From an uncultured Planctomycetaceae bacterium (lineage in GTDB: Bacteria; Planctomycetota; Planctomycetia; Planctomycetales; Planctomycetaceae), in assembly GCA_963815195.1 (NCBI GenBank), contig CAWFGE010000022.1, positions 160,001 to 224,000 of the forward strand: a stretch of DNA of 64,000 bases. Reading direction: 5' to 3'. A program made the position numbers and the translations under genes. Shown piece after piece: positions 1 through 27,026 of this stretch; positions within the stretch are counted from its first letter, which is position 1, and the number at the start of each line of letters is the position of its first letter. Under the pieces are notes generated by a model, which was not told the origin of the DNA, ran no database searches, and saw only the letters and a list, made by a program, of their open reading frames with translations.

Positions 1-2032
1 TGATGGCTGTCGAAGCGCAATTCGGACAAGGGGAAATCATCGCGGGGATCGAACCCCGTGATCGGGTTGGGCGACCGCGGGGTCGAGTGCACGGCATTGG
101 TCGGGGCGCCGCGATTGAGTTGGCTTCCGTCCGACGCCCAGGCTTTGGGCGCGATGCCCCCAGATAACACCGCGCCAGCCGATTGCGGTAGAGCGCATTC
201 AAGCTGAAGGTGTTGATGTTGATTCGCCGCGATGCGAAAACCGTCAACGCGCACAAGACGGCGATCGTCAGGCACATCGCCTCAAGCAACCGGAGCTTGG
301 CGGCGACGGGATCCGCTTCTCGAACCGTCTGGCCGGTCGGCGATGTCGCCTGAAGCTGAACCTGTTCGACGGAAGCCAGATACTCTTCGGGCGTCTCGGA
401 AAAGCCCCAAACCGGCACGAAATAATCCGTAATGAAGGAGGTGATAATGATCAGCCCGATCAGAAACACGATCGGCACGATGCGAACGGCGTATTTGCCG
501 AACCGCCCCGTCTGGCCCTGTGAGACGTTTCGGCCCGCCATCATCCCGCTCGCGACGGCGGAGACCCAACCCGCTCCGAGCACGGCTCCGATTCCTGCGA
601 GTTTCCGCTCCAAAGCCAGAATCAGCCACGGTCCCCAGATGGACAACCCGACGATCGCGAGCCACGCAAAAACATAAATCATGGCGGTGCCCGTCAGGCT
701 CGCCCACCATTCGCGAATCGCCTCGCTCCAAAGCCTCGAAATAAGTCCGACTTGAATATAGGCGATCAAGATCAATGCCGACAGAAATAAAGGCGGACCG
801 AGCGTGAGCGCGAGCACCGAACCGTCCCGGCCGACGACGCTGAGGGAATGCAGCAGCGTGAAAACTTGATAAAGCAGCATCCCGCCCACAAATCCCGTCA
901 AGAGTCCCAAACCGACGCGGGCCAGTTGCAGCATCACGCTCTTGCTCAGATGCATGTCCTCCAAATGTTGAGGCTGATCCAGGCCCACCAGCAAATGAAA
1001 CGTTCCGACCAAGACCGCCATGGCCAAACCGGATAACAGCCTCGCAAACCAGATGGGGTCCAGCGGAATCCCACGTTCGACTTCCGGATAAATCACGCGG
1101 CCGATCAAATCGACCGGGCCCGTTTGCCCTTCGAAACGCGCATGGCACAACCACGCGACCAGCACGCCCAAAATGAGCAACGGAATCATGATGTGACGAT
1201 GAAGATACATCCGCTCGCGGCGAAAGCTCGCCGGCTGTTTCTTTTCCCGGTAACTGCCGCGGATCTGCTGCATCGACCGGTGGATCCAGCGAAAAACCAG
1301 CACCAGCATCACCACGACGAGCGTTTGACCGGCGACCCAAACCACGTTTTCCCAGTTTCCCGAATTTTGATTGTCGGAGGTCATATTGAAGACCATGATC
1401 AACAGCCGCTCCGACATAATCATCCCCAGCAGCAAGGGGATGAGCACCAGCAGGTTCAATAACAAATTGCGAAGATAAATCGAAAACAGCCCCCAAGTGT
1501 CCGCGGAAAAGAACCCGAGCCGCGGCGTGAGATAGTTGCTATACGCGCGAAGATGGTGGATCGGTTCGGGTTCCGCATCGAAGACTTCGCCGGCTTTTAG
1601 GCCGTCCCGCGTGGCGGCGGCTTGGTTGACTCGGCTGGATTGCAACTGCAATTCGACGTTTTCGGTGCTGCCTTCGCGTTTGATCCAGGCTGCAAGCCAA
1701 CTCCCCACAAATCCGCCGCCGGAAACCGTGGAGAGGTAATCGAAATACTTCAAGAGCCGGTGGTCCGCGAGGCCTTGCAGGATGCCGAGATTGAATGTCG
1801 CGCTGCGGATGCCGCCCCCGGAAAACGCCAAACCCACCACGTCCTCGTCGAGCGCTTCTTGGCGGATTTGTTCGAGGGCTTCGCGCAAGCCGGATTCCGC
1901 GGATTTCGCGGGCCGATTTTCTTCACGGGCTTCGTCCGCGCCGAGTTGATTCGCTCGCCGGCGCTCGCGGATGGCCGCCAGCTCCTCCGCGAGAACCGCC
2001 GAAAAGGGAATCGGGAATTGACCGTCGGCCAC
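1..2032 (-). CDS. Patatin/cPLA2-like phospholipase with multi-pass membrane region (runs off the window start; apparent frameshift near 146)
   Basis: Manual translation from GTG at 2032 (GAGGA upstream) gives GLAFSGGGIRSATFNLGILQGL and DYLSTVSGGG (oxyanion and nucleophile Ser motifs), hydrophobic helices, then RININTFSLNALYRNRLARCYLGAS. NPITGFDPRDD follows in a neighbouring frame. Missing from the ORF track because there is no stop in the window. Confidence 0.85.
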   Translation of the reverse strand, partial: MADGQFPIPFSAVLAEELAAIRERRRANQLGADEAREENRPAKSAESGLREALEQIRQEALDEDVVGLAFSGGGIRSATFNLGILQGLADHRLLKYFDYLSTVSGGGFVGSWLAAWIKREGSTENVELQLQSSRVNQAAATRDGLKAGEVFDAEPEPIHHLRAYSNYLTPRLGFFSADTWGLFSIYLRNLLLNLLVLIPLLLGMIMSERLLIMVFNMTSDNQNSGNWENVVWVAGQTLVVVMLVLVFRWIHRSMQQIRGSYREKKQPASFRRERMYLHRHIMIPLLILGVLVAWLCHARFEGQTGPVDLIGRVIYPEVERGIPLDPIWFARLLSGLAMAVLVGTFHLLVGLDQPQHLEDMHLSKSVMLQLARVGLGLLTGFVGGMLLYQVFTLLHSLSVVGRDGSVLALTLGPPLFLSALILIAYIQVGLISRLWSEAIREWWASLTGTAMIYVFAWLAIVGLSIWGPWLILALERKLAGIGAVLGAGWVSAVASGMMAGRNVSQGQTGRFGKYAVRIVPIVFLIGLIIITSFITDYFVPVWGFSETPEEYLASVEQVQLQATSPTGQTVREADPVAAKLRLLEAMCLTIAVLCALTVFASRRININTFSLNALYRNRLARCYLGASRPKPGRRTEANSIAAPRPMPCTRPRGRPTRSRGSIPAMISPCPNCASTAI

Positions 2033-14418: not shown

Positions 14419-16409
14419 TCACTCCGCTTCGTCGGCTTCGTCCATGCCGAGTTGCGCATCTTGCGGTACAGATTCGACCGGTGCAGCCCCAACAGTTCGG
14501 CGGCCTGGCTTATGTTGCGTTGCGCGCGGTGGATCGCCGCGCGGATGTAGGTTTGCTGGAAATCCCGCGTGGCGTCCTTCAGGGTCTGGTCGCCAGCGGG
14601 CATCTGGTGCTCGGCGCCTTGGTCGGGGCTGAGAATGAATGCCAAATCGTCGGCTTCCACGCGCTCGCCCGGACTTAAAAACGCGACCCGCTCCATCAGG
14701 TTGCGCAGTTCGCGGACATTCCCCGGCCAGGCGTGTCCCTGCAACCGGCGGCGGGCCTCGGCGGAAAGCTGCAACGACGGGCGGCGGGCCTGAACGCAAA
14801 ATTGCTTGAGGAAAAACTCGGCCAGCAGCAGAATATCTTCCGGCCGGTCCCGGAGCGGCGGAAGAACCTGCGTGACGACGCTCAATCGATAGTACAAATC
14901 CTCGCGGAACTTCTTGTGGCGCACGGCCTCGGCGAGGTTGGTGTTCGTGGCCGCAACGATTCGCACATCGATCGGGATCGGCTGGGAGCCGCCGACGCGG
15001 GTGATGACTTTTTGCTCCAGCACGCGGAGCAGCTTCGCCTGCCCGCCCAGGCTCATGTCGCCGATCTCGTCCAGAAACAGCGTGCCGGCCTCGGCCAGTT
15101 CGAACTTGCCCTGCCGGGTTTCGCGGGCATCGGTGAAGGAGCCTTTTTCGTGCCCGAACAGCTCGCTTTCCAAGAGCGTCTCCGCGAGTGCGGCACAGTT
15201 GACGGCGACGAAAGGATTCTTTCCGCGCGGCCCCTGATAGTGCAGCGCCTGGGCGACGACTTCTTTCCCCGTCCCGCTTTCGCCCAAAATCAAGACCGGC
15301 AGATCCGTGAGCGCCAGGCGTTCGACGGTGCTGCGGAGAGCGACAATCACCGGGCTTTGGCCAATGAGCTTCACGCCTTCGCGGATTTGCTCGGTGAGCT
15401 GCTCGCGGGTGCGGATGAGCTGCTCCCACTCCCGGGTGTTGCGGATGGCGGTCGCCGCGTGCGTGCCGAGCTGCTTGAGGCTTTCGACATCGTCCTCGGA
15501 AAAGTTGCCGCGATTTTTGTTGATGCACTCGAACGCCCCGATCAGTTCGCCCTCGGGATCGTGCACGGGAACGCAGAGAAGGTTACGGGTTTTGTAGCCG
15601 CTCTGCTTGTCCACGTCGGAATGGAAACGGGGATCCTTGTAGGCGTCGTCGACCTTGATCGTTTCGTTCTTTGCGACGACTTCGCCCACGATGCCCGCGC
15701 CTTCCGGGATGCGGAGCGTCTCGCCTTCCACGCCGAGCGCGGGGCAGGCGACCAGTTCGCGGTGTTCGCGGTCCCAGACGAAAATGCTCGAGCGGTCGCA
15801 ATCCAGGAGCCGGGTGGCTTCGGTGGCGATCACCTCCAGAAGCCGCCCCGATTTTCGCTCCTTGGCGAACGACGAGGTGATCTGCAGCGTGCTCCGCAGC
15901 CGCTCGGCACGCCGGGCCGTGAGTTCGCGGTTCTCCATGATGCGAACCGCCAAACCAAACGACCGCCCCACGACCACCGCCATCGGCAGCCAGTCCGCCG
16001 TCAGCGACCGCCCGCACAACACAAACACATCGCGGACCCCGTCGCTGAATGCCAAAGGCACGCCGACGATTCCCCAGCCGGCGGGAGATTCCAAAGTCTG
16101 GAATCCCGCCGCTTGCTGCTTGACGACTTGCTCGAAAAACCCGGCCGGCAGCTCGTCCAAGGGAAATCGCCCGCATTGTTCGCGGATCGACCATTCCGCG
16201 GCGTTTTCGAGCACGCCGGCCCATTGCACCGCAAATTCGGTGGCCAGTTCCGGGAGCATTTCGTGAAGGAAGGTCTTGGAATCCTCGAGTTCGAGCGCCG
16301 CTCCCAACAGCCGTTCCGACAAATGAATCGCCGCCCCGCCCGTTTCCGATTGCGAAAACCAAGGCAGATCCCGCCAGGTCATCCAGGTGATATTGGACTC
16401 GGAAGTCAT
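14419..16409 (-). CDS. GAF-domain sigma-54 enhancer-binding regulator (Fis-type HTH); frameshift near 14455
   Basis: GESGTGKE, ESELFGHEKGSFTDA, FLDEIGD, WPGNVREL, AAELLGLHRSNLYRKM. The natural tail QLGMDEADEAE* lies in the frame ending at 14419. Confidence 0.9.
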
Positions 16410-21415: not shown

Positions 21416-23079
21416 CGTTCAACAAGATTCCCAAGCCGACCGCTTGCGGTCGGAGTCCGACGCCAAGGCGTCGGCTTGGGGCGTTGCGCGATTTGCATCC
21501 TCCTTGCGAAACTTCGCGAGCCGGGTGCATCGGTGCGAGCGGGGCGTGCTGTCGATCACCTCGGTGTTTGCGCTGTTTGTGTTTACGATTTTGCTGATCA
21601 TGATCGTCAACGTCGCGACGCATCTGGACGACAAGATCAACCGCCAGAACGCGGCCGACGCCTCGGCGTACTCCGGCGGCGTGGTCCTCGCGCGGGGCAT
21701 GAACACGATCAGCTACACGAACCATCTGCTGACGGACGTGTTCGCGGTCACGGCATTTTTGCGCGAGGGCCGAAATCGCCAATCCGAACAGATCGCCCCG
21801 GAGATCCTCGACGAATGGGAACGCACCGGGCAGCGGTTCACCGCAGTCTGAGTTTCAAAAGTTCCAATTGCTCGGCCAGGCGATCCTCAAAAAGTCCGCC
21901 CGAAAGCCTTTGGGCAAAGATCGGCGGCTGGTGAAGGCGTTCGGCAACCTGACGGCGGCGGCGTCCGATTTTGCGCTGCCGGTGTTCGAGTACATCCTGC
22001 GAGGCGATTCGCCGATGGGTCAAAATCAGCCGGGCGCCAAACCCGCGGCCAATCCAGAGGGCGGGTTGATCCCGCAGTTTCAGCGGCAGGTGATCCGCAT
22101 GATTCCCGCACTCGCGCAGCAGGTGACGAACGACATCGCCTGGCGGCACGGGCTCGCGAACCGCGACCTCAAAAACCTGCCCGCACCGCCCCGCGCGGAG
22201 CAGAACGGCCGCGGCCCTCAAGCGGGGATGCTCTGGCGAATGTCCGCGCGGCCGGCGGGCTTTCCCGACGAACAAGACCCGCTCGCGCGGACGCTGCCGA
22301 TCGTCGATCCCAGCCCGATGGCCGCCGACTTCCACGGCGTTCCCAACGCTGCCGAGTATTTTAAAATGGCGACGCTCCAGCGGGAGGAGTTGGCCCGGCA
22401 TTATTTGGAGATTTGGACCGGGGACAAATTGCAGCTTTTCGACCGCACGGCGCAGATGTCGCGGTTCAGCCATCTCTGGCGAATCTTCACCTGTGCGGAG
22501 TTGGAGCATTTGCTCAACGAGGAATATCCGCAAACGAACCTGCCGATGATGATCCGCTTCACCGACGCGGGCGGCGATTGGGACACGCTTCGCCAAAAAG
22601 GCCGCCCGCGGGACATCAACCGCAACCTGGAGCGGGATTTTCAGTTTTTGGGCGTGGTGTATCGCGATCATCAAAAAGAAAACGGGCCGGGGCTGTTTAA
22701 GAACCCGCTGAAAAAGCGATCCGACGCCCAGACATTCGCGCAGATCTCGCTGTTTCTGCCCCGGCCGAGGCGGGTGCTGTCGAACGGGCAGCAGAGTCCA
22801 CAACAGAGCCTGGGCGGGACGTTCGGGTTTTCGAGCAACATCGCGTTGCCTCCGCCGCCGGCTCCGGGCAGCATCCGCCCCGAGGAGGAGCGTTGGCCGA
22901 GGGAGAATTGGCCTTGGCATTGGGATCTGCTCAACCAGAACTGGACGGTGAAGATCGTCCCCGCCACCGCGGCCGCCGTTCCCAGAATCCTGCAAACCCC
23001 GCCGCCCGGCGGCAGCCTGCGCCCGCCCAACCTGGGAGCCGCGGGCATTCAGCAGCTCAACCGCGTGAACACGCATTGA
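21396..23079 (+). CDS. TadG-like pilus assembly protein (frameshift near 21845; start uncertain)
   Basis: ERGVLSITSVF..QNAADASAYSG..LARGMN motif; continues in ORF 21868..23079. Confidence 0.7.
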
Positions 23080-23226: not shown

Positions 23227-23852
23227 CTAGGGTTGATTTTGAGGCTGGATTGCCGTCGATTCTGTCGAATCGATGTTTCCCTCATCGACGAACATATCGA
23301 TTTTCAAATAAGGTTCCCCGGATTCAGGATCGCAGGGCAATTTTGTCGAGGCAAGCTGGAGCAAGTTCAATTGATTGAAGAGAACTTCATTAAACGTTTT
23401 GACGACGCCCCGCGCAATCGATTCATCATTTTCCGCCAATTCCGCCATGCGGCAAAGTTCGCGATGAATCGCAAAGGCGTGAGACTTGATGCGATCCAAA
23501 CCGGTGAGACCTCGATTCGAAAATCCCACGTGCAAGTCCCGATCCATCGCCCGCGCGTAGGCTTCCAATTCGCTGATTCGCAGCTCGCCGTCCTCGCCGT
23601 TCTCGATCTTGGACACTCGGCTCTGCGAACAATCGAGTTGTTCCGCGATCTCCGCTTGGGAAATCCCCTTCGCCGCGCGCAACGCATGCAAAGCCTTCAC
23701 CAGCCGCGCTTCGAAATTTGTTCTTCGAGTGCCCGGTTGAAAGCCTCATCGTCCGAGATGTCGCGAATCATCTCCCGAACCGAGTTGTACTGCGGATTTT
23801 CAGAAATTGAGTTGTCGGCCGCGGTAATCTGACCGCGGAAACGTTGAGCCAT
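23227..23852 (-). CDS. Xre/HigA-like HTH antitoxin or regulator (frameshift near 23705)
   Basis: LRAAKGISQAEIAEQLDCSQSRVSKIENG HTH. The N-terminal part MAQRFRGQ..EEQISKR is in the adjacent frame, with an AGGAGA RBS before ATG 23852. Confidence 0.8.
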
Positions 23853-24090
23853 TGCGATTCTCCTGTGACCCGGAGCGGGTGCTTCAATGGGGCCGCGGTC
23901 ATTCAACCGCGGAAAGTTGCAGTCGTTAAGGCCCTGCACAGCCTTTGTCTTGAGATCCAACCGTCAACCACCAATCCAACACTTGGTGGTTGGTCGTTAT
24001 GAGCTTCAACCGGCCGTGGTCATTCAACCGCGGAAACAATTTTGTGGATGCCGAAGCTCTTCATGGCATCCTGTTCAATGGGGCCGCGGT
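23807..24090 (-). CRISPR. Degenerate mini CRISPR array with type I-G-like repeats; no cas genes in the window
   Basis: Best copy 23881..23916 reads CTTTCCGCGGTTGAATGACCGCGGCCCCATTGAAGC on the minus strand (36 nt, CCGCGGT/ACCGCGG stem, ATTGAAGC 3' end). Other copies: 24003..24037, 23807..23842 (degenerate) and a half copy at 24072..24090. Gaps are 38, 86 and 34 nt. Confidence 0.75.
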
Positions 24091-24121
24091 TTTTGGATAA
24101 GAAAAGTGCGTTCAGCCGCCA

Positions 24122-24517
24122 TTATTCTTCCAACGACTCATCCGATTTTTCCTGCACTTCGGAAGCTTTCTCCGCTAACAAGGAATCGACAAAGTGTTTA
24201 CAGAATCGGATGTCGTCGGATTGGCTGTTTTTGTCGCCCAACGTGATCAAATGCAAAGTTTCTGATTCCTCGTCCGGATAAATGTAGAGCCGGAATTCTT
24301 TAAGGTGGGATCCTTTTCCCTTTTGGTCGATCGCCAAAACCCCAGACGGTTCGGGATGAATAAATCCTCGGTGGATTTGCCCGGAGGACGCGCCGGCCTC
24401 GAGGCATTTGAAAAATGTGTCCAAGTTGTCAAAAACATTCTGCAACTCGCGAGAATGTTTCTTCTGGTGCTTTTTCACCCGTTTTTCAATATCGGGCGTG
24501 GGCGACAACTTCCACAT
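24122..24517 (-). CDS. RelE/HigB-like toxin
   Basis: 131 aa; KEFRLYIY..LHLITLGDKNSQSDDI resembles the GDKxxQxxDI motif of HigB-type killers; toxin-first order with a downstream HTH gene. Confidence 0.7.
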   Translation of the reverse strand: MWKLSPTPDIEKRVKKHQKKHSRELQNVFDNLDTFFKCLEAGASSGQIHRGFIHPEPSGVLAIDQKGKGSHLKEFRLYIYPDEESETLHLITLGDKNSQSDDIRFCKHFVDSLLAEKASEVQEKSDESLEE

Positions 24518-24962
24518 GGGATTATATCATAGAGGAATAGTTTCGGCAATAAAAACACCGAAATCTCCAAAGATTATTCTTTTTTGGAATATGTTGTCAA
24601 TGACTGATGGATTGTAATAATCCCCGAAGAACCCATCTCAGCAGGAATATCTGCCATGTCCAAGCCAACCTTCCCGCGGCGTTTTTCAACCGTAGCGGAT
24701 TTTGAACTGCTGACAGGCGGCCGGTCCTTCGATGTGGTCCAGGTTGCCCCTGAAATTCATAATCCTTAAAACTCCCCAAGAGATTGCCCCCGGCGATGCG
24801 GAACTCATCATCCGTGTTGAAGATGAGGTGATTCATCGGCAGATTGCTCTGCCAAATGGATCAACCCCAACAATGCGCCGAGTCCCCATCCAACGTTATT
24901 AATTGGAAAAATCGGCAAAACGCGACATAACCATAGATCAGTTGCGAGGCAGTGTCAATTTC

Positions 24963-26942: not shown

Positions 26943-27026
26943 AAAGAGCCGCGCACGAAGTAAGCGGTTTTTGATTTCCCGACCGCTTACTGCGTGCGCG
27001 GCTCTTTGATGCGTGCGCGGCTCTTT
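26943..27026. repeat. REP-like inverted repeat (GAGCCGCGCACGAAGTAAGCGG family) with a duplicated right end
   Basis: aaagagccgcgcacgaagtaagcgg ... ccgcttactgcgtgcgcggctcttt; second copy at 36784..36856. Confidence 0.8.

Follow-up and report, generated by a model that had tools for sequence, protein, structure and literature searches.

Remnants of a type I-G CRISPR array at the junction of a planctomycete toxin-antitoxin pair: probably an inherited and decaying fragment

The closest described system to the one treated here is CCTA, a hicA-CRISPR-hicB-cas13a module of Leptotrichia and relatives in which, as the published account describes it, CRISPR RNA suppresses the toxicity of HicA, and HicA processes the array transcript (PMC13448076, Nat Commun 2026). 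The planctomycete locus lies at positions 23227 to 24517 of the window, by which we mean the whole 64,000-nt stretch that was analysed (positions 160,001 to 224,000 of contig CAWFGE010000022.1, from assembly GCA_963815195.1 of an uncultured Planctomycetaceae bacterium, called G000 where genomes must be told apart). Sequence and coordinate computation place there a RelE-fold toxin gene and an XRE-type antitoxin gene, both on the minus strand, with the remnants of a type I-G CRISPR array between them. As in CCTA, the array sits between an upstream type II toxin gene and its antitoxin gene, co-oriented with both, in a toxin-antitoxin (TA) family whose genes are otherwise adjacent in relatives. 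As far as the CCTA account goes, the two differ in several ways. The proteins here are a RelE-fold toxin and an XRE helix-turn-helix (HTH) antitoxin rather than HicA and HicB; the array is of type I-G rather than VI-A, has no leader and is partly degenerate in its repeats; cas13a lies directly downstream in CCTA, whereas here no cas gene is adjacent and no type I-G cas gene is found in the assembly; and the arrangement is seen in one genus only, the TA family being unlinked to type I-G loci (0 of 27 genomes with this repeat family have the toxin family, by a search with no positive control of its own, the single-protein search having found relatives). In full-text searches for an array between toxin and antitoxin genes, the CCTA paper was the only match in kind. 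The original prediction, made from the sequence of the window, had not recognised an array inside a protein TA transcript; because the hicA-CRISPR-hicB layout is already published, the kind of arrangement, a type II TA operon with an array within it, is not new. The planctomycete unit is probably a leaderless, inherited fragment of a type I-G array that has lost its Cas partners, is co-transcribed with the genes around it and is slowly decaying, with the antitoxin start rebuilt from spacer and repeat. The scar is real and unusual; a new regulatory device has not been demonstrated.

CreTA and regulatory mini-arrays, as their source describes them (Shmakov et al. 2023, bioRxiv 10.1101/2023.03.03.530964), share with this unit degenerate repeats, short spacers and a TA function. 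CreTA and these mini-arrays are found within cas loci, however, and pair with promoters. CreTA has an RNA toxin, whereas the window encodes a protein toxin and cognate Cascade genes were not found; the CreTA spacer is partly complementary to the toxin promoter, while the window spacers match theirs over 5-7 nt, the level of shuffled sequence. Virus-borne mini-CRISPR arrays, in the account of Medvedeva et al. (2019, PMC6858448), are likewise short, cas-less, without an obvious leader and set between co-oriented genes, and in the viral contig L156, taken up below, the terminal repeat abuts a start, as it does here. They differ in that the window unit is chromosomal, with housekeeping neighbours, and that no related virus target was found for any of its spacers. 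Orphan CRISPR arrays, two of which lie on contigs C7 and C15 of this same genome, also combine genuine repeats away from cas genes with a terminal repeat that has degenerated and with truncation by mobile elements. What sets the window unit apart from them is its place inside an operon at a gene junction, with a spacer that holds a ribosome site and a start codon and a reading frame that crosses a repeat.

Read along the minus strand, the order is toxin open reading frame (ORF), 32 nt, R0, s0, R1, s1, R2, s2, R3 and HTH gene, all co-oriented, where R denotes a repeat or its remnant and s the stretch between two of them:

24521..24600, minus strand: two sigma-70-like promoter matches (TTGACA-16-AATAAT and TTGCCG-17-TATAAT) just 5' of the toxin start, pattern matches only, from a consensus scan
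24122..24517, minus strand: toxin gene, 131 aa, RelE/HigB-type fold, without a Pfam family (ORF, AlphaFold2 and Foldseek)
24090..24121, minus strand: 32-nt stretch from the toxin stop to the first repeat remnant (sequence)
24073..24089, minus strand: R0, 17-nt 3' half of the repeat (CCGCGGCCCCATTGAAC), 1 base short of the consensus, 5' stem arm gone
24038..24072, minus strand: s0, 35 nt, spacer-length
24003..24037, minus strand: R1, degenerate repeat, 35 nt, with 3 substitutions and 1 deletion relative to the consensus
23917..24002, minus strand: s1, 86 nt, containing an inverted repeat, too long for a spacer
23881..23916, minus strand: R2, near-perfect type I-G repeat, 36 nt, 35/36 identical to the C7/C15 consensus
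23843..23880, minus strand: s2, 38-nt spacer with AGGAG (23864-23860) and the ATG (23852-23850) that opens the antitoxin frame
23807..23842, minus strand: R3, degenerate terminal repeat, 7-bp stem intact, 3' handle lost
23227..23852, minus strand: antitoxin gene, XRE HTH (HTH_3)

Compared with the consensus, R0 retains only the 3' arm and the handle, R2 differs solely at position 1, and R3 agrees at 22 of its first 26 nt, both stem arms included, and at 0 of its last 10. Folding predicts the canonical hairpin for R2 (-13.5 kcal/mol) and R3 (-13.8 kcal/mol) and not for R1, which has a stem mismatch and an altered linker. Unusually for a spacer, s0 is predicted to form a strong hairpin by itself (GGATGCC...GGCATCC; -12.5 kcal/mol, z -3.78). 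In the 32-nt stretch, a frame of 15 codons starts at an ATG overlapping the toxin stop codon (TAATG) and comes to its end within the repeat handle. The unit has no leader and begins with a truncated repeat 32 nt past the toxin stop. Sequence and coordinates thus confirm a mini-array between toxin and antitoxin that is co-oriented with both, as had been proposed. Of the three repeats and one half repeat with spacer-sized gaps in that proposal, the repeat copies are present; the gaps measure 35, 86 and 38 nt, against spacers of 35-39 nt in the C7 and C15 arrays, and that of 86 nt is far too long. The placing of the repeats between the two genes also holds in part only, as R3 and the end of s2 fall inside the antitoxin frame.

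The repeats are in the window beyond chance, a 20-nt core pattern (at most 3 mismatches) matching twice where 100 shuffles give an expectation of 0.00. Exact copies of the 32-nt core number 11 in the 8.87-Mb assembly, one in the window and 10 in the two other arrays; the C7 array has 4 exact core copies and 1 degenerate terminal copy, and the C15 array has 6 copies. The repeat consensus, GTTTCCGCGGTTGAATGACCGCGGCCCCATTGAAGC, folds as R2 does, into a 7-bp stem followed by a 4-nt linker CCCC and the 8-nt end ATTGAAGC, for a total of 36 nt. Type I-G repeats are described as 36 nt long with a 7-bp stem, cut by Csb2 at 4 nt 3' of the stem to give an 8-nt handle (bioRxiv 10.1101/2022.08.08.503147), and the window repeat has the geometry of this published substrate. 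The stem plus CCCCATTGAAGC pattern recurs in 26 of 400 other Planctomycetota genomes, where the stems co-vary and arrays reach 102 repeats. Five arrays, the largest of the repeat family on long contigs, were chosen from these 26 genomes for inspection of their leader-side flanks, and all five have type I-G genes there (Cas3g, Cas8g1/Csx17 or Cas8g2, Csb1, Csb2, Cas4g/Cas1g). Geometry and cas linkage agree with the proposed resemblance to type I-G arrays processed by Csb2, and the repeat is a genuine type I-G CRISPR repeat.

The two other arrays of the genome, C7 (38884-39265) and C15 (142238-142634), are orphan type I-G arrays of 5 and 6 repeats without cas neighbours, each preceded by a partial repeat and 35 nt. 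Both lie next to copies of an IS21-type element that encodes a serine recombinase and is present at least 9 times in the genome, in full or in part; on C7 a truncated repeat directly abuts the end of this element.

An AlphaFold2 model of the toxin (pLDDT 88.9) has RelE, YafQ, HigB2, YoeB and HigB as its top Foldseek rows, with weak scores (best E 1.1e-3, TM scores 0.4-0.7). The model supports a RelE/ParE-superfamily fold, in line with the RelE/HigB-like toxin first proposed. The toxin itself has no Pfam or NCBIfam match, no toxin family matched any of 26 members, the toxin and 25 relatives (four unrelated families matched one member each, E 0.12-0.3), and its profile finds no sequence relative in PDB. 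The downstream protein matches HTH_3 (E 6.7e-12) and is an XRE-type antitoxin. The toxin has 95 homologues, with 82-96% identity in the closest TA relatives. That toxin and HTH gene form a pair rests on conserved adjacency: the HTH gene is directly downstream on the same strand in 74 of 83 homologous loci, the other 9 being mostly cut contigs. The distance from toxin stop to HTH start has a median of 101 nt (59 of 74 within 80-135, maximum 287), against 421 nt in the window, and the stop and start overlap or abut in the homologous loci that were inspected, often as ATGGCTAA; this amounts to an insertion of about 315 nt, placed exactly where the two genes meet. CRISPR-like repeats are found in 0 of the 83 homologous loci. 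The TA locus is patchy among relatives (3 of 61 genomes) and sits at a synteny break, and a scan of genome contigs for TA relatives gave a single one, at 42%. It had been suggested beforehand that repeats missing from homologous TA loci would mark the window copy as a decaying one-off insertion. They are missing, and the copies are decaying, but the insertion is not strictly a one-off, for a congener shares the junction.

In this congener, G001, the orthologous locus likewise neighbours the agmatine deiminase gene. In front of its intact 193-aa antitoxin gene stands GTTTCCGCGATCAATCGACCGCGGCC-GAGGATCCT-ATG, a copy of R3 that shares the derived ...GGCCGA end; the ribosome site of the antitoxin is here provided by the degenerate 3' end of this repeat. 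Two remnants lie further upstream, one of a repeat (20 nt) and one of a handle (12 nt). The toxin gene is missing; in its place, ahead of the array relic and the antitoxin and oriented like them, is an unrelated ORF of 154 aa without a Pfam match (L149:1092-1553, minus strand). Because the junction of terminal repeat and antitoxin is common to G000 and G001, it predates the split of the two species. The antitoxin genes are 77% identical at fourfold-degenerate sites (46/60), and R3 is identical at 20 of 26 positions, the neutral level. A third relative is available as proteins only: its toxin (P0003) is 96% identical but truncated (107 aa), and its antitoxin (P0097) was called from an internal Met; the two share one contig of 151,613 bp.

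Close homologues of the antitoxin begin M-T-x-N-x-Q-Y-N-S-V. At this family start position the window has ATT (23807-23805) with no ribosome site before it. The frame is open instead from the ATG at 23852, with the AGGAG at 23864-23860 upstream, both inside s2, and it crosses R3, which becomes codons 4-15 of an antitoxin longer by 15 residues. It would appear that the antitoxin is translated from this Shine-Dalgarno sequence and ATG in the spacer, reading through the terminal repeat. In the assembly the frame breaks at about 23705 (...ISKRGW*), where homologues read ...S(K/N/Q)RRLVKAL..., through the loss of one base relative to the congener; restoring the base gives 208 aa. One contig of sequencing run X1, otherwise identical over 150 nt, has an extra G after 23705 (depth 3), though X1 may be the source sample and so is not independent evidence. 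Since both this contig and the congener carry the extra base, the frameshift is probably an assembly error.

No cas family is found among the 58 window ORFs of at least 100 aa (ncbifam, E <= 1e-5), in agreement with the first reading of the 64 kb as free of cas genes. Beyond the window, model searches of the genome do not find Csb2 or Csb1, and matches to Cas3g are far below the cut-off. The Csb2 search recovered the gene in 3 of 3 genomes known to have it, and Csb2 is found in 19 of 60 relatives, 10 of 36 genomes of the same family and 0 of 3 congeners. The assembly is 94.6% complete, so the absence of type I-G cas genes is not proven. The Cas1 genes of the genome, on contigs C18, C14 and C3, belong to two type I-MYXAN loci and one type III locus, all with different repeats. 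The original prediction would have had Cas proteins acting in trans to cut the bicistronic mRNA, and it had asked for a search of the genome for a type I-G locus with this repeat. That search gave the orphan C7 and C15 arrays and no type I-G cas genes, and with no Csb2, no Csb1, no Cas3g above the cut-off and no Csb2 in three congeners, cutting in trans is without basis here.

Two of the other CRISPR loci of the genome, C14:85000-103400 and C3:2100-14300, span the type III locus and one of the two type I-MYXAN loci. The type III locus carries an array of 50 repeats, and its cas1 is followed directly by a group-II-intron-like reverse transcriptase. In one type I-MYXAN locus cas1 is broken into three pieces, and an IS4 transposase has inserted between effector genes.

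The spacers give no sign of a target. Those of the window, C7 and C15 have only chance matches of 14-20 nt in the 8.9-Mb genome and chance-level matches of 10-13 nt to the phage contig L156. Exact 26-nt cores of s0 and s2 have 0 matches in viral contigs, and the longest spacer match to the toxin promoter is 5-7 nt, no better than shuffles. The comparison of spacers with genome, phages and promoter that had been proposed thus finds nothing beyond chance. CreA-like pairing with the toxin promoter region was rejected on the same shuffles, and an origin of the spacers in the TA family itself, as a self-targeting scar, was rejected because s0, s1, s2 and the 32-nt stretch have no significant match in the 83 loci.

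On present evidence, then, the history of the locus probably runs as follows. An array fragment would have lodged exactly at the toxin-antitoxin junction in an ancestor of this planctomycete genus and been inherited since, arriving perhaps by illegitimate recombination at the repeat palindrome, or perhaps in a mobile cassette of the kind seen in L156, whose mini-arrays are embedded in operons in the same way. Type I-G cas genes are no longer seen in the lineage, and the fragment would now be orphaned. A consensus scan finds no promoter-like or terminator-like site within the array, the sigma-70-like sites lying only 5' of the toxin start; because of this, the whole stretch is likely to be transcribed as one RNA from the toxin promoter. 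The 326-nt junction RNA folds somewhat better than shuffles (z -2.58), and without Csb2 the repeats would be at most passive RNA hairpins. The usual overlap or abutment of toxin stop and antitoxin start would have been lost, with the start rebuilt from the spacer as set out above. The remnants appear to be decaying, with repeats truncated and mutated here and more so in the congener.

Several points weigh against so inert a history. The C7 and C15 repeats are all identical, and R2 at 35/36 is nearly so, which fits a recent or still available type I-G system, and an assembly only 94.6% complete might have missed one. Three metagenome DNA runs with traces of the organism contain many 100-nt contigs with the exact repeat and other spacers (none of 12 compared by eye has a C7 or C15 spacer), and by their sequence live arrays with the window repeat do exist in that community. 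The same three runs cover the locus in short pieces only (shares 0.17, 0.07 and 0.00), with no contig bridging the array, and are uninformative on expression and on array-free variants; among the sequencing runs listed for the stretch there was no RNA run. The published toxin-CRISPR-antitoxin module is a functional one, as its authors describe it (PMC13448076). That a spacer should hold a well-placed Shine-Dalgarno sequence and an ATG whose frame stays open through a repeat is a coincidence, and selection may lie behind it. Lastly, G000 and G001 agree at 19 of 20 positions in the 3' 20 nt of R2, while the stretches between repeats are not significantly alike (the best local score is reached by 176 of 2000 shuffles, and the same test, 176/2000, led us to drop a homology of the 3' part of s1 between the two genomes). 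A conserved R2 end beside differing inter-repeat DNA suggests spacer turnover, gene conversion or constraint on the repeat, and not simple inert decay; the pattern would fit turnover, or exchange mediated by the repeats, at a time after the split when a type I-G system had not yet been lost, as it would fit some constraint, and a comparison of two genomes is insufficient to choose between them.

The mobile context bears on how such a fragment might arrive. The viral contig L156 (18,655 nt), from a phage of planctomycete type, encodes an SU10-type capsid protein, a serine recombinase, a methylase and an exonuclease. On its minus strand are two type I-G mini-arrays between co-oriented genes, at 15092-15471 and 16308-16390, of about 5 and 2 repeats; the genes around them are a ribbon-helix-helix (RHH) gene, the exonuclease gene and a 153-aa gene. 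Each array has a partial repeat first, and its degenerate last repeat abuts the ribosome site and start of the next gene, which is the same layout as in G001 and the window. The L156 repeats begin CTTTCC, as R2 does, with a loop sequence that differs from that of the window. These operon-embedded mini-arrays point to a possible source and to a wider habit of leaderless arrays between genes.

Should a type I-G system still be available to the cell, unassembled or mobile, Csb2 would cut the operon RNA at R1, R2 and perhaps R3, s1 and s2 would yield CRISPR RNAs (crRNAs), and the toxin:antitoxin balance would report Cas status. R2 and the stem of R3 are intact substrates by the published rule as described (7-bp stem, cut 4 nt downstream), a cut after R3 would be expected to strip the start codon from the antitoxin message, and the perfect repeats of C7 and C15, the many other spacers beside the exact repeat in the same metagenomes and the incompleteness of the assembly at 94.6% speak for such a system. 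We nevertheless hold a live Cas-dependent element to be improbable. Csb2, Csb1 and above-cut-off Cas3g are missing here, with Csb2 in 0 of 3 congeners against 3 of 3 controls and 19 of 60 relatives; no repeat copy lies at a contig end; R0 and R1 are defective; G001 has lost the toxin and its repeats are further truncated; no spacer has a target in the genome, the toxin promoter or viral contigs (for the last, exact 26-nt cores of s0 and s2); and the toxin family was found in 0 of 27 repeat-family genomes by the search without its own positive control. A role for the RNA that needs no Cas protein, with the repeat hairpins binding or occupying an RNase toxin as an additional RNA antitoxin, or setting mRNA stability and antitoxin translation, fares little differently and seems unlikely to us. 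The CCTA crRNA suppresses HicA and is processed by it, in the published account (PMC13448076), and the order of toxin, array and antitoxin is the same here; the R2 and R3 hairpins are kept where the toxin is kept and are more degraded in the toxin-less G001; and conservation between the species is higher in the 3' part of R2 than at fourfold-degenerate sites. That comparison, however, is of two genomes only, R3 is conserved at the neutral level (20/26), none of the 83 other loci of the TA family has an array, and the toxin family is unlinked to type I-G loci (0/27). RelE-fold toxins, moreover, are typically ribosome-dependent and, unlike HicA, are not known to bind double-stranded RNA hairpins, which also counts against this role.

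A remnant of a phage or plasmid cassette, of a kind whose small type I-G arrays, placed between co-oriented genes for expression without a leader, would use host Cas proteins against competitors and decay in a host without type I-G, would be an account of the origin of the unit and is compatible with its being an inherited, decaying fragment. Mobile elements commonly carry TA modules, the TA locus has a patchy distribution (3 of 61 genomes) and sits at a synteny break, and the L156 mini-arrays match the unit in layout and have repeats that begin CTTTCC like R2. We rate this origin as doubtful, since no phage or plasmid genes flank the TA locus (the neighbours among the 58 window ORFs are housekeeping genes), the toxin family was not found in viral contigs, and the spacers of the window, C7 and C15 match L156 only at the chance level of 10-13 nt, with a loop in L156 that differs. 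The idea that the units are not CRISPR at all, and are a dispersed palindrome like the repetitive extragenic palindromes (REPs) that resembles the repeat by chance, can be given practically no weight. It could draw on the other dispersed repeats of about 50 nt near the locus and on the sub-threshold match of R2 to Rfam CRISPR-DR16 (21.7 bits against 35), and it is refuted by exact identity with two regular repeat-spacer arrays and by the cas linkage of the repeat family in 5 of 5 genomes; the 17-nt 3' half of the repeat, besides, has only 13 copies in 8.9 Mb, all within arrays or array-like units.

If the unit is only a scar, it indicates that array DNA can enter the essential junction of a two-gene operon and be tolerated there, that ribosome site, start codon and coding sequence can be drawn from a spacer and a repeat, and that array relics can outlive the cas genes of a lineage. 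The boldest view of the locus is a second independent invention of the toxin-CRISPR-antitoxin architecture, from a RelE-fold toxin and type I-G, with repeats that work now or did until type I-G was recently lost, Csb2 cleavage or hairpin binding setting the toxin:antitoxin ratio, an array active across the species split and a start rebuilt from a spacer; we give it little credence. If the repeats did still act, this would be a second toxin-CRISPR-antitoxin design with both parts unrelated to HicAB-Cas13a, pointing to repeated evolution of such wiring.

Some further repeat units were seen near the locus and elsewhere, among them units of the type I-G family with one or two repeats in other settings without cas genes. 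Two stretches of about 50 nt in the window, 21430-21481 and 26944-27001, match dozens of places in genomes G001 and G002 on both strands, and by sequence look like a dispersed palindromic REP-like family of the genus. Outside the window, at G000:C21:220650-220685 (L013:10651-10686), the ATG of a Cys-rich ORF has, 15 nt to its 5' side, a lone hairpin resembling the repeat, CCGCGGCG-AAAC-CGCCGCGG and then CCCCATTGAAGC; this hairpin was considered as a sign of exapted repeats and set aside, being missing from the orthologous 5' regions of G001 and G003. L023 (G010:C226), a short cas-less contig of a same-family genome without Csb2, has at about 1225-1330, minus strand, a mini-array of two repeats around a single 37-nt spacer; its repeat is that of the window, with 2 mismatches, and the second copy is degenerate. 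Another planctomycete has a repeat unit beside an antitoxin-like gene: in L119 (G376:C85), at about 1500 on the minus strand, a solitary repeat of the type I-G family lies about 120 nt 5' of an RHH (CopG-like) gene.

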